In this document: positions 3,344 through 21,507 of the stretch, piece after piece
Position numbering within the stretch: position 1 is the stretch's first letter
Layout of the letters: the number at the start of each line of letters is the position of its first letter
Assembly: GCA_964394435.1 (NCBI GenBank)
Contig: CAYMXN010000001.1
Location: 43,739-107,738, forward strand
From: an uncultured Candidatus Saccharibacteria bacterium
GTDB lineage: Bacteria > Patescibacteriota > Minisyncoccia > UBA6257 > 1-14-0-10-44-23
Direction: 5' to 3'
Length of the DNA stretch: 64,000 nucleotides
Notes under the pieces: model-generated
Told to the model about the DNA's origin: nothing
The model's input: the letters and a program-made list of their open reading frames with translations, nothing else
Databases searched by the model: none
Program-made: the position numbers and the translations under genes

Positions 3344-4978
3344 ATGAGACTTCGCTTACCACTTCTTATTGGCGTTTTTACGCTCGCATTTCTTTTCATT
3401 GGATTTAACGTTTACAATCTGCAGATTGAAAAGGGTGCGTATTATACTCAACGGGTTAGCGCGCAAAATATTAGCGCGGGGTTTTTAGAGCCGGCGCGTG
3501 GCACTATTTATTTCACTGATAAAAATGGGAGTCAGATTCCCGTAGCTATTAATCATGAGGCTTCGGTTATTTATGCGGTTCCGAAAGAGATTGGTGATGC
3601 GCAAGAGGCGAGTGGGATTTTGAGTCCAATTGTTAATATGCCCGTTGATCAATTGACGAAGGTGTTGAGTAAGCCAAATGACCTGTATGAACGATTAGTT
3701 GCTCGTGCAACTGCTGAACAGGTGCAGATGGTTTCAGACGCCCATATTAAAGGGGTATATATTGATAGCGCTGATGATCGATTTTATCCGTTTGGCGGGT
3801 TAGCTGCTCACGTGCTTGGGTTTACTTCGCCGAGCGAGGAAGATCAGACCGTGACTGGAAAATATGGACTTGAGTCATATTATCAGGATTTATTAGTTGG
3901 GCGACGTGGCTCGTATATTGATGGGAAGCTCGTGTTGCCGGTTGATGGGCAGGATATTCATACGACTATTGACCGCAATGTGCAGGCGCATAGCGAGGAG
4001 GTTTTAGATACATTGATGAAAACGTATAAGCCGATTTCGGGTATGGTGATTGTACAGGAGCCGAGTACGGGCAAGATTTTGGCTATGGCGGCAGCTCCTG
4101 GATTTGATCCAAATGAGTACGGTAAGTCATCTATTTCTCATTTCCTTAACCCAATGGTGCAGGCGGTTTATGAGCCTGGTTCGATTTTTAAAGTGATTAC
4201 GATGGCGATCGGGCTTGATGCGGGAAAGATTACCCCACAGACTTCATTTAATGATACGGGCGAGCTTAAGTTGAATGGAAAGGTTATTCGTAACTGGGAT
4301 CATAAGGCGCACGGCACCATTACTATGACTGAAGTAATTGAGCAGTCGGTAAACACCGGTGCGGCGTATGCGCAAAAGTTGATTGGACGAGATACGTTTT
4401 ATGATTATCTTGTGAAATTCGGTTTTAAAGAGCCGACGGGTATTGATTTGCCGGGTGAGACGATTGGCAAACTTACTCCTCTTGAGAAAAATAAGCAGGA
4501 CATCAACTTTGCGACTGCTTCGTTTGGTCAGGGTGTCTCGGTGACTCCGATTCGGTTGATTTCAGCTATTTCGGCGATTGCGAATCATGGGGTAATGGTT
4601 ACGCCGTATGTAAATGAGCGATCGCGTTCAGACGTTGAGCGACGGGTGATTAGCGCAGAGGCGGCAGAACAGACTGTTGGGATGATGGTTTCGGCGGTTA
4701 AAAAAGCTAAGGTGGCTGATATTCCACAGTATGATGTCGCGGGTAAGACGGGTACGGCGCAGATTCCTGATTTTGTGAAGGGTGGGTATATTGATTTTGA
4801 AGATGGACTTATTAATACGTACGTTGGATTTGCTCCTGCGTATGATCCAAAGTTCACTATTTTACTTCGTATTGATAAACCAGAGGGGGCGACGTTGGCC
4901 GGACAGACGGTCGTGCCTGCATTTCACGACCTTGCGCAGTTCTTGTTGAACTATTACAATGTGGCTCCATCACACTAA
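3344..4978 (+). CDS. ftsI: penicillin-binding protein 2B/3, peptidoglycan D,D-transpeptidase FtsI
   Basis: N-terminal TM; transpeptidase motifs SIFK (SxxK), SVN (SxN), KTGT (KTG); dcw context. Confidence 0.85.
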   Translation: MRLRLPLLIGVFTLAFLFIGFNVYNLQIEKGAYYTQRVSAQNISAGFLEPARGTIYFTDKNGSQIPVAINHEASVIYAVPKEIGDAQEASGILSPIVNMPVDQLTKVLSKPNDLYERLVARATAEQVQMVSDAHIKGVYIDSADDRFYPFGGLAAHVLGFTSPSEEDQTVTGKYGLESYYQDLLVGRRGSYIDGKLVLPVDGQDIHTTIDRNVQAHSEEVLDTLMKTYKPISGMVIVQEPSTGKILAMAAAPGFDPNEYGKSSISHFLNPMVQAVYEPGSIFKVITMAIGLDAGKITPQTSFNDTGELKLNGKVIRNWDHKAHGTITMTEVIEQSVNTGAAYAQKLIGRDTFYDYLVKFGFKEPTGIDLPGETIGKLTPLEKNKQDINFATASFGQGVSVTPIRLISAISAIANHGVMVTPYVNERSRSDVERRVISAEAAEQTVGMMVSAVKKAKVADIPQYDVAGKTGTAQIPDFVKGGYIDFEDGLINTYVGFAPAYDPKFTILLRIDKPEGATLAGQTVVPAFHDLAQFLLNYYNVAPSH

Positions 4979-4986
4979 TCTAGTAT

Positions 4987-6306
4987 ATGCGTGTATTTGT
5001 TCGCAAAACTCTCGAGTCGATTTTACGCGTGCTCTCAAAGGCGACACTCGCTAAATTTAAGCCGGTGGTAATTGGTGTTACGGGGAGCGTTGGGAAAACC
5101 TCGACAAAATTTGCTATCAAGGCGGTTCTTTCGAGCGCGTTTCGAGTTCGCGCATCAGCTGACAGCCACAATAGCGAGGTTGGATTTCCGTTGGCTATCT
5201 TAGGTGAGTGGCGCGGAGATGATTTGCGGATAATTAGTCGCGATGCGGCGCCAGGTGGTAAGTCGTTTGCTAAAGGATTGTTTTGGCTGAAGGTGATTAT
5301 CGTGAGTGCGACGCGTTTATTGTTTGGTTCGGCGAAGAAGTATCCAGAGTTTCTTATACTTGAGTACGGCGCTGATCGGCCGGGTGATATTAAGTATTTA
5401 GCGCAGATTGCGCGTCCACAGATTGGTGTAGTTACGGCGGTTGGTGATATGCCAGTGCATGTTGAGTTTTATGATGGTCCAGATGCGGTTGCGCTCGAAA
5501 AGGGGCGACTGGTTGAGGCCTTGCTTGTAAGTGGTAGTGCAGCTTTGAATTCTGATGATGAGCGAGTTTTTGCTATGAAGGATAAGACGCGTGCGAAAAC
5601 GATTACGTTTGGGTTTGGGGAGGGGGCGCAGGTGCGAATTGATAATTTTGAAACCAAAGTCGAGTCGGGTAAGGGGATTCGTTTTCCGCGTCCGATTGGT
5701 GTGACGTTTAAGCTTTCCTATAACGGGGCGTTTGCACCGGTGCGTATTAGCGGAACACTTGGCCGGGCGCAGGCGTATGCGTGTGCGGCAGCCGCAGCAG
5801 TTGGGCTTGGCTGCGGGATGAATTTAGTAAAGATTGCGGATGCGCTCGCGTATTATCAGCCACCGGCTCACCGGTTTAAATTTGTTGCGGGTGTGAATGA
5901 GTCGCTTCTTTTTGATGACGCGTATAACGCTTCGCCGCTTTCGATGATGAATGCACTTGAGGCGGTGGGTGAGCTTAAGGCGAAGCGGAAAATCGGTGTG
6001 CTTGGGGATATGCGCGAACTGGGAAAGTTCAGTCAGATGGCGCATGAGCAGCTTGGTCGGCTGGCTGCGCGTTCGTTAGACGTGTTAGTTGTAGTTGGAG
6101 ATTACGCGGGAGTTGTGGCGGAGGCGGCTAAAAAGGCGAAGATGCCGGCAAGGTCGGTAATCGTGTGTAAGAGCGCGGAAGATGCGCTGGTTGCTTGCTT
6201 GAGCTTGATAAAATCGGGAGATTTAGTTTTAATTAAAGCCTCAAAGGCGGTAGGACTTAAAACCGTAGTTGAGGGGCTGACTGCGCGAGCGGAGAAGTTG
6301 GCTTAA
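4987..6306 (+). CDS. murF: Mur ligase, UDP-MurNAc-tripeptide--D-Ala-D-Ala ligase (MurF-like, short N-terminus)
   Basis: P-loop VIGVTGSVGKTSTK; MurF-type C-terminal motif DDAYNASPLSM; dcw context. Confidence 0.7.
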   Translation: MRVFVRKTLESILRVLSKATLAKFKPVVIGVTGSVGKTSTKFAIKAVLSSAFRVRASADSHNSEVGFPLAILGEWRGDDLRIISRDAAPGGKSFAKGLFWLKVIIVSATRLLFGSAKKYPEFLILEYGADRPGDIKYLAQIARPQIGVVTAVGDMPVHVEFYDGPDAVALEKGRLVEALLVSGSAALNSDDERVFAMKDKTRAKTITFGFGEGAQVRIDNFETKVESGKGIRFPRPIGVTFKLSYNGAFAPVRISGTLGRAQAYACAAAAAVGLGCGMNLVKIADALAYYQPPAHRFKFVAGVNESLLFDDAYNASPLSMMNALEAVGELKAKRKIGVLGDMRELGKFSQMAHEQLGRLAARSLDVLVVVGDYAGVVAEAAKKAKMPARSVIVCKSAEDALVACLSLIKSGDLVLIKASKAVGLKTVVEGLTARAEKLA

Positions 6307-6341
6307 GAGGAGAGAAGAAACTGTATCGGTTATTGTAGACT

Positions 6342-6413
6342 GCTGCTTTCGTCTAGTGGCTAGGACGGCGCCCTCTCACGGCGCAAACAAGGGTTCGATT
6401 CCCTTAAGCAGCG
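6342..6413 (+). tRNA. tRNA-Glu (anticodon CUC)
   Basis: Cloverleaf read by hand: acceptor GCTGCTT/AAGCAGC, anticodon stem GCGCC/GGCGC, loop CTCTCAC, T-arm AAGGG-TTCGATT-CCCTT; close similarity to E. coli tRNA-Glu body; CCA not encoded. Confidence 0.85.
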
Positions 6414-6420
6414 CATGTCA

Positions 6421-6444
6421 AAAATGGGACAATGTCCCATTTTT
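6421..6444 (+). terminator. hairpin plus T-tract terminator directly after tRNA-Glu
   Basis: aaaatgggac-aat-gtcccatttt perfect 10-bp stem followed by T. Confidence 0.7.
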
Positions 6445-6511
6445 GATTTTGTGCTACCTAGTGGTGTCGTGTCTTTGTTTGCGCCGTGAGAGGGCTAGCC
6501 CTCTCCGGCAG

Positions 6512-6775
6512 GACCAGTGTCCCGACGGTAATCTCTGCGGCGACACTTTCCATAGGGCGAAATGCAAGGCGTGAGTGCGAGAATATATCGGTGATATGTT
6601 GAGTGCGAGCAACGCAGCAGTTCGCCTTATGGAATCGTGTCCGGAGGTTGCTGTCTGTCGCGCGCATTACTGCGTCGCTTGTCGTTCGCATATTTCCGAT
6701 ATTCTCACTTCGCGCTCCTTGTCCTGCGCGCGACAGACTTGCAACGCCGCAAGAGCTACCGTCGGGATACTGGTC
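6512..6775. other. GC-rich highly structured ~264-nt element closed by a 19-bp long-range helix (unclassified, possible structured ncRNA or insert)
   Basis: 6512-6530 gaccagtgtcccgacggta pairs with 6757-6775 taccgtcgggatactggtc (one G.U); several internal palindromes; GC about 58% versus about 46% flanks. Confidence 0.4.
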
Positions 6776-6776
6776 G

Positions 6777-6805
6777 ACAAGGGTTCGATTCCCTTAAGCA
6801 GCGCA
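6777..6805 (+). repeat. 29-nt direct repeat of the tRNA-Glu 3' end (T-arm plus acceptor 3' strand), att-like
   Basis: ACAAGGGTTCGATTCCCTTAAGCAGCGCA identical to 6387-6415. Confidence 0.85.
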
Positions 6806-6942
6806 GCTAGCGGGTCTTTTCATTGTGGTACTTTGTTACTGCGGGCTCGCAGTACGCTGTCGCTTATGTACAGCTTCGCCCTTGCGCCTCGTACCGCTAT
6901 GAAAATCCGCCGCTATATATAAATCTTTGCTATTATAATTTA

Positions 6943-7752
6943 ATGCACCCGGTAGCTCAGAGACTTCTTTCTCGGAAAAATAATCAAGCGACTCAGGGCC
7001 ATGGACGGCGCATTATTTTGCTTTCTTATGGCGGTACTATGAGTGGCATGGTAAGCGCGGGTGCACTTATCGCACTTGAAGAGCTTGGGTTGAGAAATGC
7101 GTTTGATGCAATTTATGCTTTTTCCGCCGGAGCTCCTAATGCTGCTTATTTTTTATCTGGACAGGTGAGATTAGGTGCATCGATTTACTACGAGAATCTT
7201 ATCGGGCGTCAGTTTATTAATTTTTTTAAACCTTGGCGTATCGTTAACGTTCCATACCTTATGAATATTTTTGAGTGTACCAAGCGTCTTGAGCCCGTGC
7301 GGATTATGAATGGGGAAACTTCTCTTTTTGTGAGATTGCAAAATATAGTAACGCGGGAGATTGAGTATGTGGATGCTTGTCAGTTTTCGGCGGAAGCAGA
7401 TTTTTTCTCTTTACTTAGAGCAGCAGTTAGTATGCCTTTTCTCACTCCTGGAGCTACCTTAATTCAAGGCAAACGATTTAAGGAGGATCTTTTTGGGTAT
7501 CATAAAGAATTTCTGAAAAGCGTTTTAGCGAAAGAGCCAGATAGTGATGTGGTTATTTTATATAGCAGGGCAAATCAACGTCCGCTTGGCTTTGTTTCTA
7601 GTGACTTAGTGCTTGAACTTATTCCTCCGACTTATTGCGCAATTAACCCACTTGAGACTCGAGGTGATGTCCTGAAGCGTGGTGCTGAACAGATGGGGCG
7701 ATATGTAAAGAGTCTTTTTGAACAGGAAGGTGATATCTCGCTTAAGGATTGA
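6943..7752 (+). CDS. patatin-like phospholipase
   Basis: GGTMSGMVSAGALIALEELG glycine-rich loop and FSAGA serine motif; tataat -10 immediately upstream (6934-6939); internal ATG of ORF 6823..7752. Confidence 0.7.
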   Translation: MHPVAQRLLSRKNNQATQGHGRRIILLSYGGTMSGMVSAGALIALEELGLRNAFDAIYAFSAGAPNAAYFLSGQVRLGASIYYENLIGRQFINFFKPWRIVNVPYLMNIFECTKRLEPVRIMNGETSLFVRLQNIVTREIEYVDACQFSAEADFFSLLRAAVSMPFLTPGATLIQGKRFKEDLFGYHKEFLKSVLAKEPDSDVVILYSRANQRPLGFVSSDLVLELIPPTYCAINPLETRGDVLKRGAEQMGRYVKSLFEQEGDISLKD

Positions 7753-7772
7753 ATTGTGCTACTATTTTATCT

Positions 7773-8174
7773 ATGGAAACCTGTATTTTTTGTAAGATCG
7801 TGAAGGGAGAGATTCCTGCCTATAAGGTGTTTGAAAACGAGGCGACGTTGGCGTTTCTAACTATTGGGCCAATTCGTCCAGGGCATATGCTTGTTATCCC
7901 TAAGAAGCATGAGCCGGATTTTTATAATCTTGATAGCGCTACCTATCATGCGGTGATGGAGACGGTTCATACAATGTCAAAACTTGCTAAAGAGAAGTTA
8001 CATCCAAAGCGAGTAGGTCTTGTTGTTGCGGGCTGGGATGTTCCGCATACGCATGTGCATGTCGTTCCAACTGAAGATTCTCGAGATATCATCTCTCAAT
8101 TTTCAATCAATGGGCCACTTCCTATCATGTCTGATGATGAGTTAAAGCAGGTATTCGGACGATTGATGAAATAA
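7773..8174 (+). CDS. HIT family (histidine triad) hydrolase
   Basis: CIFCKIVKGEIPA N-terminus and HTHVHVVP histidine triad. Confidence 0.8.
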   Translation: METCIFCKIVKGEIPAYKVFENEATLAFLTIGPIRPGHMLVIPKKHEPDFYNLDSATYHAVMETVHTMSKLAKEKLHPKRVGLVVAGWDVPHTHVHVVPTEDSRDIISQFSINGPLPIMSDDELKQVFGRLMK

Positions 8175-8176
8175 GT

Positions 8177-8497
8177 ATGAAACTTATCGCGTACACTTTT
8201 GGGTTTGGTTTCTTGTTGCTGATCGTGGCGATGTCGTTTGCGTATGTGAAGTTTGCCGGTGTAGATGCGCTCTTAGCGATTCACTTTACTCCACGGCAGG
8301 GCGTTGATTTTTTGGGTAGCTCGATGGATGTGTTTGGGGTCTTATTTACCGGCTTTGGGGTTTTGCTGGCTAACGGGTTTGTCGCATGGTATCTTAATAA
8401 GCGCGAGCATTTTTTGTCAGTAATCGTAGCTTTCTTTAGCGTCCTGCTCGCACTCTTGCTTTTTATCGCGACCTTTGTTATTATCGTCAATAACTAA
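8177..8497 (+). CDS. small integral membrane protein (3 predicted TM helices)
   Basis: Hydrophobicity pattern only. Confidence 0.4.
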   Translation: MKLIAYTFGFGFLLLIVAMSFAYVKFAGVDALLAIHFTPRQGVDFLGSSMDVFGVLFTGFGVLLANGFVAWYLNKREHFLSVIVAFFSVLLALLLFIATFVIIVNN

Positions 8498-8845: not shown

Positions 8846-8944
8846 CATTAAGGGCAATTATTGACTTTGTCTTTGTATTGTGCTATAATATATATTAAGG
8901 CAATCAAGTGAAATTGGTCCTTTGGACCGGAAAGTGAGGTTCGC

Positions 8945-9601
8945 GTGTCGACTCGTCAAAGGTTGATCGCGGACATCTTGTTCGCGGTCCAGATGGTGCT
9001 TGGGATTTGGTTTGCGGTGACGCGAGTCAGTACTGTGCGCGAAGGGCTCGAGGGGGTGCTGATGGGCGAGTTTATTCTCGTTCTGGCGTTCGCACTCCTC
9101 GGTCTTTATCTCGCGCTCGCGTCGCGCCGGCTGCAAAAGAGTCGCATCGTGACGCAGAGCATCATTGTGTACAGTTTCTGGACGGCTGCGCTCGGCGTGC
9201 TCATCGGAGCGACGCTGACGAGTCCGGCTGGGGTGTACCAGTGGAGCACTACCGATACGATTACGGTTGGCGTTGGTGCGCTTGCGGCACTTGTCGTTGT
9301 TTCTATTGGGCGTGGGCGCGGGCTCTCGGTGCGCGACCCGATGGTGCGCGGTTGGACCGCACTGATGCTCAAGGGTTGGCCGCAGCTGATGCTCGCGGTC
9401 AAGATCGCGCTCGAGGGTCACGGGAAGCTTAGGCTTAGTACTGTTATCCTTGGGCACGCAACGATCTTGATTCGTCTTGGGCAGATCTTCTTGTCGGTCA
9501 AGGCTACTGGCTGGGATCGTCCGCGTCGTGGCCTGTGGTTGAGCGAGCTCGGCAATGAGCTCACGTGGTGCGTAACCACGATTGCATGGGTCATCTGGTG
9601 A
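8945..9601 (+). CDS. GC-rich multi-pass membrane protein (GTG start), probable foreign segment
   Basis: 6 hydrophobic helices; about 60% GC versus about 46% genome; RBS gtgagg upstream; antisense ORF judged spurious. Confidence 0.45.
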   Translation: MSTRQRLIADILFAVQMVLGIWFAVTRVSTVREGLEGVLMGEFILVLAFALLGLYLALASRRLQKSRIVTQSIIVYSFWTAALGVLIGATLTSPAGVYQWSTTDTITVGVGALAALVVVSIGRGRGLSVRDPMVRGWTALMLKGWPQLMLAVKIALEGHGKLRLSTVILGHATILIRLGQIFLSVKATGWDRPRRGLWLSELGNELTWCVTTIAWVIW

Positions 9602-9666
9602 TCTCCGGCCCCCACATTCGCGCAAGCGAGTGATGGGGGCTTTTTCATAGATCGTTTTAGAATGAA

Positions 9667-9709
9667 ATAAAAAAGTGATCGAAAGCGCATGGGCGCTACA
9701 TCGATCACT
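9667..9709. repeat. 43-bp element with nested palindrome GTGATCGA-AGCGC-ATGG-GCGCT-ACA-TCGATCAC, copy 1
   Basis: Identical to 10023-10065; located 9 nt after the stop of the 9719..9925 gene (minus strand). Confidence 0.85.
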
Positions 9710-9718
9710 AGTTTCTAC

Positions 9719-9925
9719 TTATTGTACTTTCGTGCCCTTGAGCTGCTTGAGCAGCTCAAGTACCTGCTTTAGTCGTGGCGAGGTGACATAGGTCTTGATG
9801 GCATCCTCTACGATGCGGGTCCTTGTCATGCCCGTCTTTTGCGCAACCTCATCGAGGAGTTTGATGACATCCTCGTGGATTCGGTAGCTAGTCATCTTTA
9901 CTGACCGACGAGCCTTCGGCATCAC
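9719..9925 (-). CDS. ribbon-helix-helix (CopG/Arc/MetJ-like) DNA-binding protein, antitoxin-like
   Basis: 68 aa; beta-strand KMTSYRI then two helices (EDVIKLLDEVAQKTGMTRTRIVEDAIKTYV); paralog of 10077..10280. Confidence 0.55.
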   Translation of the reverse strand: MMPKARRSVKMTSYRIHEDVIKLLDEVAQKTGMTRTRIVEDAIKTYVTSPRLKQVLELLKQLKGTKVQ

Positions 9926-10022
9926 TACTTTCTCCTTAGGGGTGCTGCTTGGCTATCTTAAGCCATATATCTCTTTTTTGTCAATTTAAGAGAGAGGCTT
10001 TTTAGCTCCGGTTTTGAGTTTA

Positions 10023-10065
10023 ATAAAAAAGTGATCGAAAGCGCATGGGCGCTACATCGATCACT
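10023..10065. repeat. 43-bp palindromic element, copy 2
   Basis: Identical to 9667-9709; 12 nt after the stop of the 10077..10280 gene. Confidence 0.85.
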
Positions 10066-10076
10066 TAGAGGGGATT

Positions 10077-10280
10077 CTACTTCACTTTCAAGTTTTCCAG
10101 TTCTGCCAGAAGGGATTTCACTTTTTTGCACCTTTGTGAGGTGGCGTAGCTTCTGATCGCGTCTACGGCGACACCAGTTCTTGTCCAGTGCATTTTCTTC
10201 GCGATTTTGTCGAGAAGTCTATAGACTTCGAGAGGAAGTCGGCAAGTAAACATCTTTTTCGGTTGATGGCCTTTCGGCAT
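10077..10280 (-). CDS. ribbon-helix-helix (CopG-like) DNA-binding protein, paralog
   Basis: 67 aa; FTCRLPLEVYRLLDKIAKKMHWTRTGVAVDAIRSY fits the RHH pattern. Confidence 0.55.
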   Translation of the reverse strand: MPKGHQPKKMFTCRLPLEVYRLLDKIAKKMHWTRTGVAVDAIRSYATSQRCKKVKSLLAELENLKVK

Positions 10281-10377
10281 CGCAACCTCCTTCTTGGGTT
10301 ATTGGCACTGCTCGAGTATTCTATGTTATATATTCGAGCGCAGTCAAGGTTGCTATAAGAAGTTTTGCTTCGTAAAT

Positions 10378-10971
10378 TTAACTTCGGTTTTTGAGTGAGT
10401 CGATGAGTGTTTGTTCGTCGGCAAACTCGATTTCACCGCCCGTTGGGATGCCGCGGGCGAGGCGGGTAATTTTTTGAGATAAGCCTTTTAGTTCGCCGGC
10501 GAGCAATGAGGCGTTGAGGTCGCCGATGGTGGTTGGTGAGAGTGCGATAATAATCTCGTTGAGTATGCCGGTTTTTTCCGTTGTTTTTTTGAGTACGGCG
10601 ATACGCGTCTTGTGTTGCATATCCAGGCTGCCGGCTTTTTTAATATCACCGACAATGAGATAGCGGCCGGTGAATGATTTAGCTTTTTCGAGCGTTAGGA
10701 CGTCGGTATCTTTTTCAACTACCGCGACAATGGTTTGATCTCGTTTTGGGTCGGTACAGATTGAGCAGAGGGGGCCGGTATTGTCGTGCATTAAAAAGCA
10801 CTGCTCGCACTCTTTGAGTTTTGTCAGGCTCGCGAGTGTTGTGCTGTAGTTGCTGATTTCGGATTTTGATAATCGTGCGAGGTAAAAGGCGAGACGTAGT
10901 CCTTGGCGTGGGCCAATGCCGGGAAGCTCGGCGAGGCGTTTGGCGAGTTCTTTAATCGCAGAAGGAGTCAT
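10378..10971 (-). CDS. recR: recombination protein RecR
   Basis: HhH N-terminus (LPGIGPRQ), C4 zinc finger CEQC...CSIC, Toprim domain. Confidence 0.9.
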   Translation of the reverse strand: MTPSAIKELAKRLAELPGIGPRQGLRLAFYLARLSKSEISNYSTTLASLTKLKECEQCFLMHDNTGPLCSICTDPKRDQTIVAVVEKDTDVLTLEKAKSFTGRYLIVGDIKKAGSLDMQHKTRIAVLKKTTEKTGILNEIIIALSPTTIGDLNASLLAGELKGLSQKITRLARGIPTGGEIEFADEQTLIDSLKNRS

Positions 10972-10979
10972 AGGCGGGG

Positions 10980-12305
10980 TTATGAGTGATGGGTGTCGAT
11001 ATTTCTAAAGGTCGACATCTCTTGCTCGAAGCGTACGGAAATAGAGCCGGTTGGACCGTTGCGGTGTTTGGCGACGATAAGCTCGGTTGCACCCTCATCA
11101 ACCGGGTCGAGTCCGGTCTTACCTTTGTTTTTACGCCAAATAAAGATAACGACGTCGGCGTCTTGTTCGATCGAGCCGGAGTCGCGGAGGTCAGAAAGGC
11201 GTGGTTCACCATCACGCTGTTCGGTTGCACGGGAGAGCTGGGAGAGGGCGACGACTGGTACGTTGAGTTCACGCGCGAGTCCTTTAAGACCACGGCTGAT
11301 TTCTGTAATCTGACTGACGATGTTGTCGCTGGTGGTGCGAGGTTGAATAAGTTGGAGATAGTCGATAATCAGCAGGTCGAGGCCGTGTTCTGACTGTAGG
11401 CGGCGAGCCATCGCGCGCATTTGGAGTACGGTTGGGCTTGGGGTGTCGTCGATGTGTAGGGATGATTGTGAAAGAGTATCTAGGGCGTGAGGGATAAACT
11501 CAAGGTCGCCTTCGTTTAGTTTGCCGGTGCGTAGTTTCCAAAGGGGAACGCTCGCTTCAGCGGCGATGATACGGTCGATGACTTGTTCGTTGCTCATTTC
11601 AAGCGAGAAGATGCCGACGTGTTTGCCTTCGCGCAGTGAGGCGTGGCGGGCGATGTCTAAGGCGAGGGAGGTTTTACCGACAGATGGACGCGCACCAATA
11701 ATAATCAAGTCTGATTTTTGGAATCCGGAGAGTTTTTCGTCGAGTTGAGTAAGTCCACTGCCGATACCACGGAGGCGACCTTCACCATTTTTTAGTTTTT
11801 CGATACGTTCGGCCGCTTCTTTCAGTTTGTCGCGAACAGCGTAAAACTTTTGACTGACCGAACCTTGGGAGATGGAAAAGATTCTACTTTCGATCTGGTC
11901 TAGGAGTTGCGGGAGGTCGTCGGTAGCAGTAAACGCGTCTTCGCTGATTTTCGCCGAAGTGCTGATAAGATCGCGGAGAATTTTTTTCTCTTTGACGAGT
12001 TTCGCGTAGTGCTCGACGTGGCTGGCGGTTGGTACTTTCTCGGTGAGAATCGTGAGTGCGGTAGCTCCTCCGATTTGTTCGAGGTGTCCGGCGTCCTTGA
12101 GTGCGTTGGTGACGGTTAAGATATCAATTGGTAAGCGCTTTTCAAACAGCTTTAGAAATGTAGCGTAGATGATTGAGTTAGTTGGATTATAAAAGTCTTC
12201 AGCGCGCAAAATATCTGCGACGCGAATGATCGCATCTTTATCAAGCATTAGCGCACCGAGCACTGATTCTTCAGCCTCCAGATTTTGAGGTGGTAGTTTG
12301 GTCAT
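10980..12305 (-). CDS. dnaB: replicative DNA helicase DnaB
   Basis: Walker A GARPSVGKTSLALD; DnaB N-terminal LPPQNLEAEESVLGALM. Confidence 0.9.
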   Translation of the reverse strand: MTKLPPQNLEAEESVLGALMLDKDAIIRVADILRAEDFYNPTNSIIYATFLKLFEKRLPIDILTVTNALKDAGHLEQIGGATALTILTEKVPTASHVEHYAKLVKEKKILRDLISTSAKISEDAFTATDDLPQLLDQIESRIFSISQGSVSQKFYAVRDKLKEAAERIEKLKNGEGRLRGIGSGLTQLDEKLSGFQKSDLIIIGARPSVGKTSLALDIARHASLREGKHVGIFSLEMSNEQVIDRIIAAEASVPLWKLRTGKLNEGDLEFIPHALDTLSQSSLHIDDTPSPTVLQMRAMARRLQSEHGLDLLIIDYLQLIQPRTTSDNIVSQITEISRGLKGLARELNVPVVALSQLSRATEQRDGEPRLSDLRDSGSIEQDADVVIFIWRKNKGKTGLDPVDEGATELIVAKHRNGPTGSISVRFEQEMSTFRNIDTHHS

Positions 12306-12325
12306 GATGATTAGGAGACGCCGAG

Positions 12326-13699
12326 TTAGTTTTTCGGTAGGACGATTGGTCCAACTGGCGTGTCTTCTACTAGGTATCCTAGCGCATCTATTTGCTTACG
12401 CAATGCGTCAGACTGGGTAAACTGTTTAGAACTTCTGTATAACTCGCGTTCGTTTGCCAGTTTCTCTATTTCTTGAGGAATAGTGATAGCTAGTGAGCTT
12501 ATGCCGAGCTTTGTGAGCCAGCCAGCAATGAACGTGTGGATGTGCTTGGCTTGAGTGGCGCTTAACTGCCAGATCTGCTTATTGACCGTATTCATTATAT
12601 TAAAGATAGTCGCGAGCGCTTTTGGGCTATTGAAGTCGTCGTCCATAGCGGCGATAAACTCTTTTTCATAAGCTGTTATGTCTAGCGTAATCGTTTCCTG
12701 TTTGGTTTGTACTTTAGTGAGTTTAAAGAGAAATGCTTTGATGTCGTTGAGATTTTTTTGCGCGGTACTAACTAGTTCATCGCCATAGTCCATTGGGGCG
12801 CGGTAGTGATGTGAGAGTACTATCATACGAAAGACGTCGCCCGAGTGCTTTTTAAGGAGTTCGGTGATGGTAATGAAGTTGCCGAGCGACTTACTCATTT
12901 TTTCGCCTACAAGATTTAAAAAGCCGGCGTGCATCCAGATCTGCACGAATGGTTTTTTACCGCTGGCTGATTCTTGTTGGGCGATTTCAGCTTCGTGGTG
13001 GGGGAATTTTAGGTCGATCGCACCTCCGTGAAGGTCATACTGTGGACCGAAAAAAGATTCGGTAATAGCCGTGTCTTCGATGTGCCAGCCTGGTCGGCCG
13101 GTGCCGAATTCAGCTTGCCATGACGGTTCATTTTCTTTCGAGAACTTCCAGAGACAAAAATCACCGGCGTTACGTTTTTTATCAATATTGTCGATGCGGG
13201 TTGTGCCATCGGTCGCCTGACTTGCAGTTCGCTTAGCAAGCTTGCCGTAGTCGGCAAATTTTGAGAGGTCGAAGTACCAACCTTCGCCTTCGATTTTATA
13301 CGCGTAGCCTTTTTTAATCAGGGTTTGTACTTGCTTGATGATTTGCGGGATGTGGTCGGTAGCTTTGGCAAATTGAGTAATTGAAGTGATGTTTAGCTCT
13401 TTGAGATTTTGTTTGTAGATATCTTCGTAGCGCTGTTTGATAACTTCCCACGAGACGTTTTCGTCCTGGGCTTTTTTGATTATCTTATCGTCGATGTCCG
13501 TAATATTCTGGAGATAGAACAATTTAAATCCGCGAGCCCTGATGTAGCGCGCGATAATATCAAAGGCGGTAAAGGTGCGGGCGTTGCCGATGTGCGGATG
13601 GTCGTACACGGTTGGTCCGCAGACAAACATTTTGAGCGAGCGGAAGAGCGGTTTTTTGAGTATTTCTTTTTTTCCCGTAAGGGTGTCGTAGATTTGCAT
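12326..13699 (-). CDS. cysS: cysteine--tRNA ligase
   Basis: HIGH (HPHIGNARTF) and KMSKS motifs; CysRS N-terminus MQIYDTLTG. Confidence 0.9.
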   Translation of the reverse strand: MQIYDTLTGKKEILKKPLFRSLKMFVCGPTVYDHPHIGNARTFTAFDIIARYIRARGFKLFYLQNITDIDDKIIKKAQDENVSWEVIKQRYEDIYKQNLKELNITSITQFAKATDHIPQIIKQVQTLIKKGYAYKIEGEGWYFDLSKFADYGKLAKRTASQATDGTTRIDNIDKKRNAGDFCLWKFSKENEPSWQAEFGTGRPGWHIEDTAITESFFGPQYDLHGGAIDLKFPHHEAEIAQQESASGKKPFVQIWMHAGFLNLVGEKMSKSLGNFITITELLKKHSGDVFRMIVLSHHYRAPMDYGDELVSTAQKNLNDIKAFLFKLTKVQTKQETITLDITAYEKEFIAAMDDDFNSPKALATIFNIMNTVNKQIWQLSATQAKHIHTFIAGWLTKLGISSLAITIPQEIEKLANERELYRSSKQFTQSDALRKQIDALGYLVEDTPVGPIVLPKN

Positions 13700-13701
13700 A
13701 A

Positions 13702-14610
13702 CTAGAGAATCTTTTTCTTTTTAAATCGATAGGCGAGATATCCGACGAGTCCGATCATTGGTAAGAATGTACACCAAAAAGTAAACGGGGTGGCGAGTAG
13801 GATGTCGCCAATATACGGAATGCTGACTGCGAAGATGTAAAAGAGTGGGATTGAGCTTAAGAACGCTCCCGCGGTTATTTTTTTGATTATCTCATTAGTT
13901 TGAGCGCTTAGGATTTGTGCGTTAGTTGTTTCAAGCGACTCGATAATCTCATAGTAGTTGTCGAGGGTTTGGGCGAGCTTTTGGTTGTCGCCAATCAGGT
14001 CGGCTAAGTAGACTCGGCTATCTTCTCCCCAGAATCTGGCGCCATTTTCTAGTAATGAGTTGAATAGTAGATTTTGCGGACGAGTAATTAATCGAAAATC
14101 TAAGATGTCGCGTTTTACATAAGAGATCTTTCGCAACAGATCGCCGCTGCGATCGTGGAAAATTTCGTTTGAAAGGAAGCTGACGCGTTCTTCGATGTGG
14201 TGGAGCTGGCGAGCGGAGAATGAGATGAACTCCTGGAGTAAGTTATACATCAGCTCGTAGCTGTTTTTACCCAGCATTTCTTTTTTCTTTTCTTCGCTAC
14301 GCAAAAGTTCCTGAAAAAGCTTTTCGATTGGCTCAAGTGTTTCGTGGTGCGCAGTAACAATAGTGTTTTTGGTAATCAAAAAATCGATTTCGGCGCGACG
14401 AGACGTTTTTTCCTGTGGGTCGTAGATAGGAATATGAAAAGCGACGAACATATACTTGCTGTACTGTTCGATGCGTCCACGAACCGAGGGGTGGGTTATC
14501 TCGTCGAGGAGTATGGGGTGAAAGACGCGTAGTTTGCGCAGCGCTTCAATGTCGCCGTCATTTGGCTTTAGGACGTCGATCCACGTTACTTTGTCTTTTA
14601 TCGTGCGCAT
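13702..14610 (-). CDS. CorA-like divalent cation transporter
   Basis: About 300 aa with cytoplasmic N-domain and two C-terminal TM helices, basic tail; canonical GMN motif not evident. Confidence 0.55.
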   Translation of the reverse strand: MRTIKDKVTWIDVLKPNDGDIEALRKLRVFHPILLDEITHPSVRGRIEQYSKYMFVAFHIPIYDPQEKTSRRAEIDFLITKNTIVTAHHETLEPIEKLFQELLRSEEKKKEMLGKNSYELMYNLLQEFISFSARQLHHIEERVSFLSNEIFHDRSGDLLRKISYVKRDILDFRLITRPQNLLFNSLLENGARFWGEDSRVYLADLIGDNQKLAQTLDNYYEIIESLETTNAQILSAQTNEIIKKITAGAFLSSIPLFYIFAVSIPYIGDILLATPFTFWCTFLPMIGLVGYLAYRFKKKKIL

Positions 14611-14699
14611 AGATTGCTGTGTATATCTTTATGTAAGTATAACGTATAATAGAGGGAAGAAGCACTAGGTCGTTTTAGTTTTATATTTTATTTATTAGT

Positions 14700-15491
14700 A
14701 TGCAGTCAAAAAATACACTTTCAGATTTTTTTATTAAATTGGTTGCAGTGTTGGGCCTGGCTTCATTTCTCGCTCTCTTTTCGTACTTAAACACCGTATT
14801 TGGTTGGACGAATCCAAGTGCGAATCCGCCGAGTGGAAGCGGTATCTTGACTGCGTACCAGGGGAAGCTTGGTATTAATGCGGCGACTCCAAGTAGTAGC
14901 CTTACGGTCAATGGTGTTATTAGCGCGGTTGGCAACTTAATTAAAGATGTTGCGACGCCGATTAGTGATACCGATGCGGCGAATAAAGCGTATGTTGATG
15001 CGCAGGTTGGTGCGACGGGTGGTGGAGGGGGGTCGTTAGTTATGTATGGATTTGGGCTTAATCAAACTCAAGCTGGTAGGTACCAGCGCGCCGGAGGAGC
15101 GATTGGTGCTGGATGTCGTGGTATTTTTGGTGGACTTTTTACAGCGGCGTGTGTTCCGACTGTTAACGTTGCAGCTGGGACTGGTGTAGCTGCTTGTCCA
15201 AGTGGCTGGACGCAAGTATATGCAGGATATGGTCCAATGAATACCTTGTTTACTTGGTATGGTATGGCAAATAGTGATCCGAGTGGTCAGAGCGGCGAGC
15301 AAACTGAACTTGACGTTCCTGATGCTGCAGTTATAGGAACTGACTCTATTTGTTCAGCAGTTCCTTATGCGGTTGTGTATGATGCAACTTATGCGCAGAA
15401 TGGTGCTAATGTGGGTGTTGGTGGTTCGAACGCAGTTTTGACCGCTTGTAATGATTACGGCTGTAATACCTGTAGAGTTTGTGTGAAATAA
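14700..15491 (+). CDS. membrane-anchored secreted Gly/Cys-rich protein with tail-fibre-like motifs
   Basis: Signal-anchor FIKLVAVLGLASFLALFSYL; AYQGKL and TDAANKAYVDAQ motifs; poly-Gly; Cys-rich C-terminus. Confidence 0.45.
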   Translation: MQSKNTLSDFFIKLVAVLGLASFLALFSYLNTVFGWTNPSANPPSGSGILTAYQGKLGINAATPSSSLTVNGVISAVGNLIKDVATPISDTDAANKAYVDAQVGATGGGGGSLVMYGFGLNQTQAGRYQRAGGAIGAGCRGIFGGLFTAACVPTVNVAAGTGVAACPSGWTQVYAGYGPMNTLFTWYGMANSDPSGQSGEQTELDVPDAAVIGTDSICSAVPYAVVYDATYAQNGANVGVGGSNAVLTACNDYGCNTCRVCVK

Positions 15492-15501
15492 TTTTTACAT
15501 C

Positions 15502-16041
15502 GTGCGTACGTCTCGTAATCGTTTTCAGATTTTTGTAATCATTGGTGTCTTGATTGTTTTCTTTTATCTCTTTTTTCAGAGCAATTTTGTGCTTTGCCCA
15601 ATGCGAACTCAACGCGAGGTGGTGCAGGGGAATTCTTTGCAGGGGATTATCGAAGATGGTGCTACGGTTAGAATCCAGTATGGATATTATGGTTGTCATA
15701 TTCCACTGCGTGATGAGGTGGTGGCGATTCGGTATGCAGGAAATAAAAATCCGCTTATTAAAGTAATAAAGGGTGTACCGGGTGATGTCTTTGCGCTTGA
15801 GCCTATGGGTGGCGGGCAGGCGCTCTTGATTAATCATCGGCCGGCGTTTACGAGTGCGGGTGTTCCGTATGTATTTAGCGCTCAAAAGGCGAAGGTTTTC
15901 TCTCTGTATATCCGTGATTACCAGGGAGTGATACCTGATAACGCCTATTTGGTGCTCGGTAATTTGCCGGAAGGTACGATGGATAGTTCGCAGTTTGGGC
16001 TTATTGATAAAGCGAGCTTGATTGGGCGTGTACAGCTGTAG
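15502..16041 (+). CDS. lepB: signal peptidase I (S26 family, LepB-like)
   Basis: N-terminal TM; GNSLQGII (GDSMxPT box variant); VLGNLPEGTMDSSQFGLI matching the C-terminal S26 box. Confidence 0.65.
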   Translation: MRTSRNRFQIFVIIGVLIVFFYLFFQSNFVLCPMRTQREVVQGNSLQGIIEDGATVRIQYGYYGCHIPLRDEVVAIRYAGNKNPLIKVIKGVPGDVFALEPMGGGQALLINHRPAFTSAGVPYVFSAQKAKVFSLYIRDYQGVIPDNAYLVLGNLPEGTMDSSQFGLIDKASLIGRVQL

Positions 16042-16077
16042 ATATTACTTGACAGAGACCTTGACAAAGCCTTTTTT

Positions 16078-16089
16078 TAGTTTAAACTA
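16078..16089. promoter_or_regulatory. perfect 12-bp palindrome TAGTTTAAACTA just upstream of grpE (possible operator); two TTGACA hexamers at 16049-16066
   Basis: Seen directly; no CIRCE consensus present. Confidence 0.25.
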
Positions 16090-16098
16090 GTTTTCACT

Positions 16099-16632
16099 AT
16101 GGACGAGTTACAGAATGAAAAACAATCATCTGCGAATCAGTCATCCTCCTCGTCTCTTCCTCCTGATGAGCTTCAAGCTCAAGTCCAGAAGTTGACGGGC
16201 GAACGCGACGAATATCTTGATGGGTGGCGACGTTCGAAAGCAGACTTTCTTAATTATAAAAAAGAAGAGGCGAAGCGTATCGAAGAAGTTGTTTCGTTTG
16301 GTAATATAGCTCTTATTAAAGAATTAATTGCAGTACTTGATAGTTTTGATCTCGCTTTAAACGCATTCACGCATGATGAACAGGCGCGTAAGGGGGCGGA
16401 GATGATTCGTGGTCAGTTTGAGGGTGTGTTAAAAAAGCACGGAGTAGAAAAAATTGCCGTACGTGCTGGTGATGAGCCTGATCCGCGTATTCACGAGATG
16501 ATGAGCGAGATCGATGTTCCACAGGGAAAGCACGAGCTCGCCGGAAAGATTGTTGATGAGTTGGCGAGCGGGTATATGCTCAATGGAAGGGTGATTCGTC
16601 CGGCAAAGGTGCGGGTAGGTAAGGTAAATTAA
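16099..16632 (+). CDS. grpE: nucleotide exchange factor GrpE
   Basis: DEYLDGWRRSKADFLNYKKEE GrpE signature; precedes dnaK. Confidence 0.85.
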   Translation: MDELQNEKQSSANQSSSSSLPPDELQAQVQKLTGERDEYLDGWRRSKADFLNYKKEEAKRIEEVVSFGNIALIKELIAVLDSFDLALNAFTHDEQARKGAEMIRGQFEGVLKKHGVEKIAVRAGDEPDPRIHEMMSEIDVPQGKHELAGKIVDELASGYMLNGRVIRPAKVRVGKVN

Positions 16633-16655
16633 CAAGTCATTAATTTATTACACAT

Positions 16656-18500
16656 ATGGCTAAAATAATCGGTATTGATTTAGGAACAACGAACTCGGCG
16701 GTTGCGGTTATGGAGGGTGGTGCGCCAAAGATTTTGGAAAACGCGGAGGGAAATCGCACGACTCCTTCGATTATTGCACTTACCAAGGGTGGTGAGCGTG
16801 TTGTTGGCTTATTGGCTAAGCGTCAGTCAGTCACTAATCCTAAGAACACTATTTTTTCGGTTAAGCGTTTGATTGGACGTAAGTTTTCTGATCCGGAAGT
16901 CCAGCGTGATAAGGCGTGGTTGCCATATGATATTCGTGAAAGTGCAGCTGGCGGTGTTGAGGTAAAGATGGGAGATAAGTGGCTTACGCCGGAAGAGCTT
17001 TCGGCGATGGTTTTGGCTAAGCTTAAGGCTGATGCAGAGGCGCGCTTAGGTGAGAAAGTTGAAGAGGCGGTTATTACCGTGCCTGCATATTTTGATGACA
17101 GCCAGCGTCAGGCGACTAAGAACGCCGGTGAGATTGCCGGTTTGAAGGTTCGCCGTATTATTAACGAGCCAACTGCAGCTGCGCTCGCGTACGGTTTTAA
17201 TAAAAAGAAAAACGAACAGATTGTTGTCTACGACTTTGGAGGTGGAACATTTGATATCTCTGTGCTTGAAGTTGGCGATGATGTTGTTGAGGTTAAGTCT
17301 ACGGGTGGCGACACACACCTTGGTGGTGATGATTTTGATAAGCGCATCCAGGAGTTTCTCGTCTCTGAATACAAAAAGCAGGAGGGTGTAGATATCAGCA
17401 AGGATCCGCTCGCGCTCCAGCGCTTAAAAGAGGCGGCCGAAAAAGCCAAGCACGAACTCTCTACTTCGCTTGAGACCGAGATTAACTTGCCATACATTAG
17501 TTCAGACGCTTCTGGTCCAAAACACTTCTTGATGAGGATGAGTCGGGCGAAGCTCGAAAGTTTAGTGCAGGATTATCTTGATCACTCGATTGATCTTACG
17601 CGCAAGACGGTTAAAGAGGCCGGCTTTGAGCTTAACGATATTGATGAGGTGATTCTGGTTGGTGGACAGACGCGTATGCCGGCGATGCAGGAGGCGGTTA
17701 AGAAGTTGTTTGGTAAAGATCCGCATATGGGTGTAAACCCAGACGAGGTAGTTGCGGCTGGTGCGGCTGTTCAGGCTGGTGTGCTCCAGGGAGACGTGAA
17801 AGATGTTCTGTTGTTAGACGTTACGCCGCTTTCCCTTGGTATTGAGACACTCGGTGGCGTATTTACGAAGTTGATTGAGAAAAATACGACTGTGCCGACG
17901 GCGAAGAGTCAGGTATTTTCTACAGCGGCTGATAATCAGACGAGTGTTGAGATTCACGTACTCCAGGGTGAGCGCGAGATGGCTGCCGACAACAAAACAC
18001 TTGCGCGCTTTATTCTCGACGGTATTCCTCCGGCTGCGCGCGGCACTCCACAAGTCGAGGTTAACTTTGATATTGATGCGAACGGTATTTTGAATGTAGG
18101 TGCGAAAGATAAGGCGAGTGGCAAGAGTCAGTCGGTTCGTATTGAGGCTTCAACTTCGCTTTCTAAGGAGGAGATTGAGAAGCTTAAGGCGGAGGCGGCA
18201 AAGCACGCGGATGAAGATAAGAAGAAGCGTGATGCGGCTGAAGCTCGTAATATCGCTGAAAACTTGATTTATGTTTCTGAAAAGTCACTCAAAGATGCTG
18301 GCGAGAAGGTGACGCCAGAAATCCGAGCGAGCGTTGAGGCGAAGATTAATGATTTAAAGAAGGTTAAGGACAGTGGAGATGTAGCAATCATCAAGAAAGC
18401 GACCGATGAGCTTTCGGCAGAGATTCAGAAAATCGGCGGGGCGATGTACAATAAAGAGAACAAAGCCGATGATGCTTCCTCAACAAAACAGCCTGAATAG
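16656..18500 (+). CDS. dnaK: chaperone DnaK (Hsp70)
   Basis: [28 protein letters not shown] signatures. Confidence 0.95.
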
Positions 18501-19482
18501 TATTTCCGGAGCGGATATCCGCACGACCGATGTTGATTGGTCATTGAAACACTTTTTTGTGTTGATTGTTTCGGGTGGAGTTTTTTCACTCCTTACGAGT
18601 TTTTGTTTGGCGCGGTTTAATGCGCTACCGAGTTCTTTGTGGTTGCTTTATACCGCACTTTCGATTGCAGGACTCTTTTCGGTTATTGTCTTTCAATCAC
18701 TACTCATCAAGAGTTCATTTTTGAGTTCGATTGTTGCACTCACTGAAGGTGTTTGTCTGGCTGTGTTCTTATTGAGTGATATTTCGAGCTGGTCAATTTT
18801 TGGACTCGCTTTATTTATCCTTTCGGTTTTGATTGGCTTTAAGGAGGGGAAGGTTCATCTTAATGAGCGGATGCGGATTCAGTTTGGCCGGTTTGCGCGG
18901 ATTGTGTTGGCGTGGACTACCACTGGCTTTGTTTTGTTTGTTTCGTTTTTCTATGCGAGTCTTTACCAGCAGGCGAATAGTATCTCGTTTGACGCGTTTC
19001 GATTTTTAACTGCGAATGGTGCGCCGGCAGTTGTACGCACCTTTGTTCCGGGATTTACTCCTGAAATGTCGACGGATGAGTTTTTCAGGACGTTTGCCGG
19101 TTTTCAGTTTCGTAGCAATCCGCAAATCGCTCAACTTTCCGAGGCTGATAAACAGCGCGTGTATGCCGAGCTTGGGAATCAGCTCCAGGCAAAGGTTTCT
19201 GAAGTGACTCAAACGCCAGTAGATTCACGTGAGACGATTTTGCAGTATTTTTACCGTATTGCGAATCGATACATTTCGCGGTTTAGTGCTGACGGCGCGG
19301 GTGTTATTCCGATGCTTGGCGTTGCTTTGTTTATCTACTTCACCCTAAAGCTTCTTTTTTTCTTCTATCGATATCCGATCGCTTGGTTCTGCCAGCTTGT
19401 CGTGTATAACTTGCTTTTGGCGACTAAGGTTGTCTATATTAGTACCGAACCAAGAAATAAGGAGATTATTCTTGTTAAATAA
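18469..19482 (+). CDS. multi-pass membrane protein of unknown function (start uncertain; overlaps dnaK 3' end)
   Basis: ORF track frame; 5-6 TM helices; ATG at 18469, alternative TTG about 18543. Confidence 0.4.
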
Positions 19483-19485
19483 CCT

Positions 19486-20574: not shown

Positions 20575-20692
20575 AGTTAAGGCTGGAAAGCGCTTGGTTT
20601 ATTTTGCTTTTAAATTAAATTGAAGCCCTTCTTTCGCTTTACTCTTTCAGGGCACTCAATTTTGTACTCACTTGAGTACTCGTGAACAAAAT

Positions 20693-20766
20693 TGGTGCCT
20701 CCACATGGAATCGAACCATGATCAGCGGATTAAAAGTCCGTTGCTCTACCACTGAGCTATGGAGGC
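20693..20766 (-). tRNA. tRNA-Lys (anticodon UUU), CCA encoded
   Basis: Reverse complement GCCTCCATAGCTCAGTGGTAGAGCAACGGACTTTTAATCCGCTGATCATGGTTCGATTCCATGTGGAGGCACCA folds as a cloverleaf with loop CUUUUAA. Confidence 0.85.
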
Positions 20767-21501: not shown

Positions 21502-21507
21502 CCTTTT

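Follow-up and report, generated by a model that had tools for sequence, protein, structure and literature searches.

A probable recombination remnant behind a Patescibacteria tRNA-Glu gene that may be retained as a structured RNA

Several kinds of described genetic element resemble the DNA that follows the tRNA-Glu(CUC) gene of an uncultured bacterium of the Patescibacteria, or candidate phyla radiation (CPR), and each of them also differs from it in certain respects. This organism occurs in the sequencing runs SRR14271335, SRR13076513, and SRR13076518. The insert in question, 390 nt long, lies in a 64,000-nt stretch of its genome (the window, whose numbering is used for all coordinates given without a locus label), at the end of an mraZ-rsmH-ftsI-murF cluster in which the tRNA gene stands next to murF. 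The interpretation favored here, tentatively and from sequence analysis, is that the insert is a recombinase-less remnant of recombination at a tRNA-Glu hotspot, and that its core and adjoining domains have been selected as a folded + strand, most likely as an undescribed RNA.

Among the known systems, cis-mobilizable elements (CIMEs) are integrase-less attL/attR remnants at tRNA genes. They share with the insert an intact tRNA, inserted DNA, a closing repeat of the tRNA 3' end, and the lack of a recombinase, and in both cases bona fide mobile elements use the same site in related organisms. Unlike the repeats of CIMEs, however, the repeat in the window lies inside a larger conserved block rather than at its edge, and an inverted tRNA copy is present. 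Also, the interior is a conserved, covarying structure and not decaying arm DNA.

The CTX phage attP(+) site uses the host XerCD recombinase, and the attC site of integrons is likewise a folded single-strand site. The insert resembles these two in that the target is present both in sense and in antisense, so that the copies can form a duplex mimicking the chromosomal site, in its strand specificity, in an interior that is variable but paired, and in having no recombinase within. The inverted copy pairs with the repeat in the minimum free energy (MFE) fold, but its T-arm part is about half mismatched and fast-evolving. Unlike attP(+) and attC, the window offers neither an integron context nor a dif-like site, its mimic duplex has degenerated, and the interior is far larger and conserved in sequence.

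Comparisons with three other groups are similarly mixed. Repetitive extragenic palindromic (REP) sequences and bacterial interspersed mosaic elements (BIMEs), Correia elements, and miniature inverted-repeat transposable elements (MITEs) resemble the insert in having inverted repeats at their ends, in forming a long and imperfect palindrome, in lying between genes behind a terminator, and in measuring a few hundred base pairs. Unlike them, the insert occurs once in 64 kb, has no target-site duplication at the core borders on reading the sequence, pairs asymmetrically with respect to strand, and has conserved loops. Like the tRNA 3'-trailer RNAs exemplified by 3'ETS-leuZ of E. coli, it follows immediately on the 3' side of a tRNA, has the same orientation, and could share its transcript, but it is ten times larger and stands behind a terminator hairpin. 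Finally, large serine recombinase (LSR) elements occupy the same tRNA at four related loci (L011, L043, L045, and L019) and likewise have a boundary a few nucleotides from the tRNA 3' end, hairpin-rich ends, and a palindromic junction expected on excision. In contrast to these elements, the window has no recombinase gene or remnant and no sequence similarity to them, and they leave no long direct tRNA repeat of the kind that bounds the insert.

The anatomy of the locus (Table 1) can be described in terms of one repeated unit, tRNA nucleotides 29-74 (6370-6415), which begins with the anticodon stem's 5' strand and ends 2 nt beyond the discriminator. This unit occurs three times: in sense within the tRNA, in antisense at 6450-6495, and in sense again at 6496-6509 and 6777-6805. 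The turn-arounds between these copies are the terminator-like hairpin and a CTAG-centred palindrome. The third copy is interrupted by the 264-nt core, which replaces about 4 nt (tRNA nucleotides ~43-46) at the variable-loop junction, and thus the exact 29-nt direct repeat already reported in a preliminary description of this DNA (6387-6415 = 6777-6805) is the 3' portion of the third copy, downstream of the core. The antisense copy, first described as an anticodon-arm match at 6478-6495, is longer than was claimed. Positions 6475-6495 are a perfect 21-nt antisense of tRNA nucleotides 29-49, comprising the anticodon arm and variable loop, and the match continues through a degenerate 28-nt beginning to 46 nt at 76%. 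The perfect 18-nt palindrome GAGAGGGCTAGCCCTCTC at 6488-6505 was found exactly as described, inside the hairpin that leads into the second sense copy of the anticodon arm, GCCCTCTC-CGGC (6496-6509). At the 3' end of the core, the motif GGGATACTGGTC lies 23 nt upstream of the T-loop sequence GATTCCC.

The tRNA itself is complete, ending one nucleotide beyond the 6413 first given, and its sequence is 100% identical in the window and in two relatives, L004 and L024. The hairpin behind it, which had also been recognized as a terminator, is the only terminator-like site in 6200-7100 and differs from that of L004 by 1 substitution in 34 nt, located in the loop. Because its flanks are symmetric, termination would be possible from either direction. 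GC content is 55.7% in 6512-6775 and 54.1% in 6414-6805, which is above the 46.0% of the whole window but short of the 58% stated originally.

Folding of 6447-6810 (364 nt) yields -184.8 kcal/mol, with a z score of -9.4 relative to dinucleotide shuffles. Aligned to its reverse complement, the core matches at 61% over 264 nt, and it is closed, as previously described, by 19 bp between 6512-6530 and 6757-6775 that include one G-T; the pairing extends into terminal inverted repeats of 31 nt at 81% (6512-6542 versus 6745-6775). Two long arms of the core are closed by helices Pa and Pb, and their tips are mutually complementary, forming helix Pc. Since the linkers between Pc and Pa or Pb are only 1-3 nt, the geometry indicates that Pc is incompatible with Pa plus Pb. 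The core can therefore be drawn either as a Y shape with Pa and Pb (-139.8 kcal/mol) or as a rod with Pc (-127.7 kcal/mol), and the existence of two mutually exclusive predicted folds suggests that it encodes a conformational switch. The conserved structure does not stop at 6805, where the insert was first thought to end, but continues to about 6915. This additional domain 3 (MFE -44.8 kcal/mol, z = -4.2) lies outside the tRNA repeat, yet it is conserved along with the insert, being present in L004 and absent from L024.

Evidence for selection comes from the comparison with L004, whose MurF protein is 94% identical and which carries the same element at the same position; all rate and covariation figures are drawn from these two copies. 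As a neutral yardstick, fourfold-degenerate sites from rsmH to murF were used, 244 of 698 of which (35%) differ. Over 6478-6805, by comparison, only 19 of 328 positions have changed (5.8%, p = 1e-36 versus 35%), with no changes among the 34 positions of 6478-6511 or the 29 of the second repeat copy. Domain 3 is also slow (13 of 115, or 11%, p = 6e-9 versus 35%). The 5' part of the inverted copy (6450-6477) has accumulated 7 changes in 28 nt plus one indel, and this rate of 25% is not different from neutral (p = 0.18) and is above that of the core (p = 9e-4). Thus the core evolves about six times more slowly than fourfold-degenerate sites, a figure that is subject to the caveat, discussed below, that the locus is mosaic.

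These rates bear on one account of a tRNA-end repeat, which is that it bounds an inert scar, the attL-attR leftovers of an element whose body was deleted and which has no present function. The repeat itself, the missing integrase, the attP-like size, and the location at a hotspot are all in keeping with a scar, as are short tRNA-end repeats 75-250 nt downstream at four other loci (L013, L021, L030, and L049). A scar would not be expected to diverge by 5.8% where silent sites reach 35% and an adjacent degenerate segment 25%, nor to maintain pairing in 13 of 14 changed helix pairs or to show the strand-specific excess of G-U pairs reported in the following paragraph. The excised-island scar that had been listed as the first of three options is insufficient in view of the slow core and its compensatory changes, and this explanation is already disfavoured and must be regarded as improbable.

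The preliminary description had also suggested looking for covariation, and pair-preserving changes were found. Pair counts were made on a structure of 200 pairs that includes Pc, in which 98.5% of cells are paired, as compared with 35-47% when the partners are slid by 1-3 columns. Across the whole structure, pairing is preserved in 4 pairs that changed on both sides and in 13 that changed on one side. In the four core helices, pairing survives in 4 pairs with changes on both sides (0.72 expected, P = 0.006) and in 9 with a change on one side, and 1 pair is broken. All six changes in Pc keep its pairing, whereas an alternative local fold of the arm tips is broken twice. Moreover, the fold of the + strand has G-U pairs and A/C mismatches in ratios of 10:0 and 11:1 (p = 0.002 and 0.006), and it is more stable than the fold of the - strand in both genomes. 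The G-U excess and the compensatory changes together indicate that the selected object is the folded + strand, which is the strand of the tRNA. Substitutions lack a 3-nt periodicity, which argues that the region is not coding, and a protein-coding interpretation was rejected on this ground and because Pfam gave no match for the open reading frames (ORFs) that cross it.

The strand bias also helps to evaluate a purely DNA-level explanation. Under this explanation, the core would be a palindrome, such as two fused terminal inverted repeats of a MITE-like transposon, that is maintained by template switching or gene conversion without any RNA or selected function. The 61% match of the core to its own reverse complement and its 31-nt terminal inverted repeats have this appearance, and a palindrome of this kind would be produced by fusing two of the 115-145-bp hairpin-bearing repeats of the relatives' serine-recombinase elements. 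Likewise, a sense-antisense-sense zig-zag of tRNA sequence that turns at hairpins is what template switching would produce. Mismatches in such a palindrome should, however, be symmetric between the strands, which is at odds with the observed ratios, and helices Pa and Pb, each of them well paired, have no relation to one another. Conservation extends to unpaired positions (1 of 40 changed), there is no evident target-site duplication, and the core has no sequence similarity to the repeats of the recombinase elements. Overall, a DNA palindrome without RNA seems an improbable explanation, although marginally less so than a scar.

Relatives that could extend the comparison are few. The MurF protein cluster of this lineage comprises four members, beyond which identity falls to only ~56%, and so the lineage is judged to be isolated. 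One contig from this cluster, L023 (from JGI), was uninformative because it diverges inside murF. Comparison of the locus among relatives, another step proposed earlier, revealed the insert in L004 but not in L024, in which a DUF218 gene directly follows the identical tRNA and both the insert and domain 3 are missing. Because L024 has another gene at this position, it does not represent a clean empty site with collinear flanks. The window, L004, and L024 are about equidistant in ftsI-murF (85-87% identity). Just downstream of the variable segment, in the region of the HIT gene, L004 (5458-5939) and L024 (6382-6863) are 97.5% identical, as compared with ~84-86% upstream of the tRNA, which indicates a locus of mosaic ancestry whose breakpoint falls at the tRNA hotspot. 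In the window, an ORF for a patatin-like phospholipase (7039-7752, in segment 6926-7751) separates domain 3 from the HIT gene; it is absent from L004, which has ~100 nt at this position, and from L024, which has the DUF218 gene. Thus each of the three genomes has its own cassette in the segment from tRNA-Glu to the HIT gene.

Several considerations weigh against the conclusion that the insert is maintained as a functional RNA. The rates at paired and unpaired sites are not significantly different (18 of 224 versus 1 of 40, p = 0.32), and the covariation derives from few events because there are just two copies that are ~94% identical. In a mosaic locus the element is possibly younger than its flanks, which weakens the argument from rates, although the contrast within the element (25% versus 5.8%) and the pair-preserving pattern are independent of the flanks. 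Template switching during replication can also keep hairpins complementary without function. In addition, the element is separated from the tRNA by a good terminator, a search of 6200-7100 gave no promoter-like site, and the folded + strand could be DNA instead of RNA.

Regarding the origin of the insert, the 3' end of tRNA-Glu is demonstrably a recombination hotspot in Patescibacteria, among which the order murF then tRNA-Glu(CUC) is conserved. Two loci, L019 and L059, are 99.955% identical over 4.5 kb through the tRNA and are unrelated thereafter (breakpoint L019 5494 / L059 4494). Beyond this point L019 carries a recombinase element and L059 carries an element of the R1 family introduced below, which reflects either a strain-level polymorphism or an assembly join at the tRNA. 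The recombinase of L019 is an LSR encoded on the opposite strand with its 3' end overlapping the tRNA, and the same gene is at this site in L045, L043, and L011. The protein is full-length in L011 (528 aa, with Resolvase, Recombinase, and Zn-ribbon domains), and the last 15-20 codons of the gene are the antisense of the tRNA-Glu gene. These compact one-gene elements are flanked by the terminal inverted repeats mentioned above, which start 4 nt inside the tRNA 3' end, contain internal hairpins, and are 100% identical in L011 and L043. Dense nested inverted repeats with arms of 13-20 nt (80-100% complementary) are also seen within the recombinase coding region of L019, at 5750-6290.

The site has other occupants as well. 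At L021 (5490-9234), a 3.7-kb island carries regulators of phage type (an XRE-type helix-turn-helix protein and a KilA-N regulator) and four unassigned ORFs but no recombinase, and it is bounded by a 46-nt direct repeat that consists of 27 nt of non-tRNA sequence and the 19-nt end of tRNA-Glu. The motif GGGRTACTGGTC of the window, 23 nt upstream of GATTCCC, is found in register in both of these repeats with 15 of 23 nt identical, and a degenerate copy of the L021 repeat and motif is present in L009 (5623-5676). This shared, in-register motif links the insert to elements that use a common recognition sequence. The small inserts with a tRNA-end repeat noted above (L013, L021, L030, and L049) each carry the tRNA sequence of their own lineage, and in the first three of these the order matches that of the window: hairpin, inverted tRNA copy, structured interior, and repeat. 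Of the 5 loci that have a strong repeat, 4 also have an inverted copy, as against 0 of the 33 that lack such a repeat (p = 7e-5). Taken together, the breakpoint, the recombinase elements, the island, the small inserts, and the motif support an origin by site-specific recombination, and the attB integration proposed earlier is a reasonable reading of the repeat.

The R1 family provides a further example of structured sequence at this site. R1 elements form three hairpins, with compensatory changes in 11 of 34 pairs among four sequences, and they are not represented in Rfam. Their host lineages have MurF proteins that are only 40-66% identical, and convergent genes follow R1 at some loci. L013 has two tandem copies of R1, separated by a repeat of the tRNA end. 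Homology of R1 to the terminal repeats of the recombinase elements was considered and judged too weak to claim (z about 3.3).

Table 1. Features of the insert and its surroundings, and elements at tRNA-Glu(CUC) in related loci
Feature	Position	Strand	Basis or remark
Relic of a separate insertion upstream of the tRNA: last ~30 nt of GIY-YIG gene cassette	6311-6341	+	96% identity to L024 5676-5705
tRNA-Glu(CUC), complete	6342-6414	+	ARAGORN; Rfam RF00005, 63 bits
Direct repeat copy 1: variable loop, T arm, acceptor 3' strand, discriminator, next 2 nt	6387-6415	+	
Intrinsic-terminator-like hairpin: 14-bp stem, 3-nt loop, T-run	6417-6447	+	
Inverted copy (A') of tRNA nt 29-74	6450-6495	-	46 nt at 76% versus 6370-6415
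Hairpin turning antisense copy back into second sense anticodon-arm copy	6483-6509	+	sequence reading and fold
Palindromic core, 264 nt	6512-6775	+	folds
Helix o (outer)	6512-6541 with 6746-6775		
Helix Pa	6542-6563 with 6619-6641		
Helix Pc, arm-tip complementarity, 45 bp	6564-6617 with 6670-6722		duplex -56.7 kcal/mol
Helix Pb	6647-6666 with 6725-6745		
Motif GGGATACTGGTC at core 3' end	6764-6775	+	inverted partner 6512-6523
Direct repeat copy 2, 3' part of second sense copy of tRNA nt 29-74	6777-6805	+	
Domain 3: closing helix 6808-6831 with 6891-6915 around three small hairpins	6808-6915	+	fold
Serine-recombinase elements	L011:5352-7111; L043:1342-3101; L045:2066-3802; L019:5447-6733		
R1 element, ~170-190 nt, directly 3' of tRNA-Glu(CUC)	L038:1752-1925; L037:5777-5965(-); L067:6738-6921; L059:4494-4653		
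Further R1 loci	L013:6562-6724; L013:6405-6561; L030:5183-5410		

The main rival explanation is a still-mobile element. According to this rival, which corresponds to the miniature tRNA-targeting element of the preliminary description, the insert is a non-autonomous integrative element moved by a recombinase encoded elsewhere, and the o:o' stem with its GGGRTACTGGTC motif beside the tRNA-like 3' end is a putative recombination site, possibly folded and single-stranded like CTX phage attP or integron attC. The structure would then be selected for the element and not for the host. The succession of repeat, inverted copy, and repeat fits our derivation of the product expected from integration of a folded strand, and L013, L021, and L030 repeat this layout, each with the tRNA sequence of its own lineage. 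The motif is in register with the repeats of a recombinase-less island, the mosaic locus implies horizontal exchange here, and the tandem R1 copies of L013 show a small element repeated with a tRNA end between. The strand asymmetry is also compatible with folded single-stranded DNA. In contrast, the T-arm and acceptor part of the inverted copy, which would be needed for a duplex that mimics the tRNA, is degenerate and evolves at a near-neutral rate, and the arms are conserved in sequence beyond what mere pairing would demand. Likewise, neither a recombinase in the window regions that were examined nor a second copy in the 64 kb, ~100 related loci, or the viral, phage, and plasmid collections has been found. 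We regard this explanation as unlikely on balance, but as deserving serious attention.

The searches behind these statements were varied. In agreement with the earlier report of no integrase, Pfam scans of the ORFs in 3344-8494 and 8858-22902 revealed no recombinase domain, and tblastn with the relatives' protein as the query gave no LSR match anywhere in the window; the genes from 8.8 to 23 kb are housekeeping genes. Nhmmer and blastn searches detected no other copy of the insert, beside a tRNA or elsewhere, in the rest of the window or in ~100 related loci. Blastn searches of phage and plasmid collections with the insert yielded no homologue, and exact-pattern scans of viral contigs yielded only unrelated tandem repeats or chance matches. 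A metagenome collection scanned with a 21-mer from the tRNA 3' end did not contain the tRNA 3' end. In Rfam 15, tRNA is the only family matched at the gathering score, and relaxing the threshold to E values up to 10 added only tRNA-derived and chance matches.

Three other candidate relationships were examined and rejected. Membership in the R1 family is contradicted by a covariance model of R1, which gave no match at E up to 1 with default filters and, once the filters were removed, only scores below 3 bits. For an origin in the serine-recombinase elements, tblastn gave no match, and local alignments to their terminal inverted repeats gave z scores of at most 2.2. A role as the leader of the downstream gene was dismissed because that gene differs between the window and L004, and R1 elements have convergent genes after them.

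The intact T arm and acceptor 3' strand of the second repeat copy raise the additional question of whether the insert belongs to a tRNA-like molecule, such as a tRNA with a giant intron or variable arm, a two-piece transfer-messenger RNA (tmRNA), or an RNA whose tRNA-like 3' end directs processing. With relaxed settings, ARAGORN gives a pseudo-tRNA at 6714-6804 (acceptor GCTCCTT, 6 of 7 pairs) and a permuted tmRNA that was called spurious, and in Rfam 6713-6803 weakly matches tRNA-Sec (16 bits). Neither program reports such a molecule at default thresholds, and ARAGORN finds no intron-containing tRNA when introns are allowed. Furthermore, the tRNA upstream is itself complete, with a terminator of its own, the matches at relaxed settings compete with helices that are backed by compensatory changes, and the repeats of the analogous elements start inside the T loop, so that no T arm is possible there. 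The tRNA intron and tmRNA readings are already unlikely, and we give this group of explanations very little credence.

The explanation that we prefer, namely a recombination remnant whose structure has been selected, can be stated as a series of proposed steps. The DNA after tRNA-Glu would have been deposited through recombination at the 3' end of the tRNA, as the anatomy and the occupants of other loci suggest. It would have left, in order, a fresh tRNA 3' end with a terminator hairpin, an inverted copy that is now decaying, and a second sense copy split by the core. As the comparison with L004 shows, the core, the anticodon-arm hairpin, the repeat, and the downstream domain of ~110 nt are not decaying but change several times more slowly than silent sites, which we attribute to selection. 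The selected product may be an RNA of roughly 330-440 nt in the direction of the tRNA, made by read-through of the terminator or from an undetected promoter, and this RNA might take the two exclusive folds, Y (Pa and Pb) and rod (Pc). Among the three options offered in the preliminary description, a structured noncoding RNA gene is accordingly the best supported, on the basis of two sequences.

A bolder proposal, which we consider rather doubtful, is that the insert and its counterparts in L013, L021, and L030 constitute an undescribed class of miniature tRNA-Glu element that is active as a folded single strand composed of sense and antisense copies of the tRNA 3' half. The representative in the window would have been kept as a bistable (Y/rod) RNA of ~400 nt, making it an att module that has turned into a functional RNA.

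Other observations concern the surroundings of the insert. Upstream of the tRNA there are traces of a separate insertion, which is complete in L024. There, between murF and the intact tRNA (5321-5705), degenerate pieces of the tRNA 5' half (nucleotides 1-32), interrupted by hairpins, accompany a 93-aa GIY-YIG gene; the window keeps only the final ~30 nt of this insertion, and in L004 it is missing altogether. Two other sequencing runs yielded contigs of the same strain that end within the element, one at 6516, just past the palindrome (L002), and the other at 6431, at the terminator hairpin (L003). These breaks could be due to low coverage, hairpin-induced assembly failure, or population heterogeneity at the insert. 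Farther downstream, on the - strand, adjacent small ORFs at 9719-9925 and 10077-10280 (67-68 aa) have similar translations, from which they look like paralogous small DNA-binding proteins.

To our knowledge, few noncoding RNAs are known from the CPR, whose members are unculturable. If the core is a real RNA, it would be a new large structured RNA from this radiation, and the locus would represent an instance of a mobile-element attachment module that has been kept for a structure-dependent role. If the core is only a self-maintaining palindrome, then the insert would be an ordinary integration remnant. Regardless of whether an RNA is made, tRNA-Glu(CUC) beside murF is a hotspot that hosts compact serine-recombinase elements and at least one further structured family, R1, that is not in Rfam.

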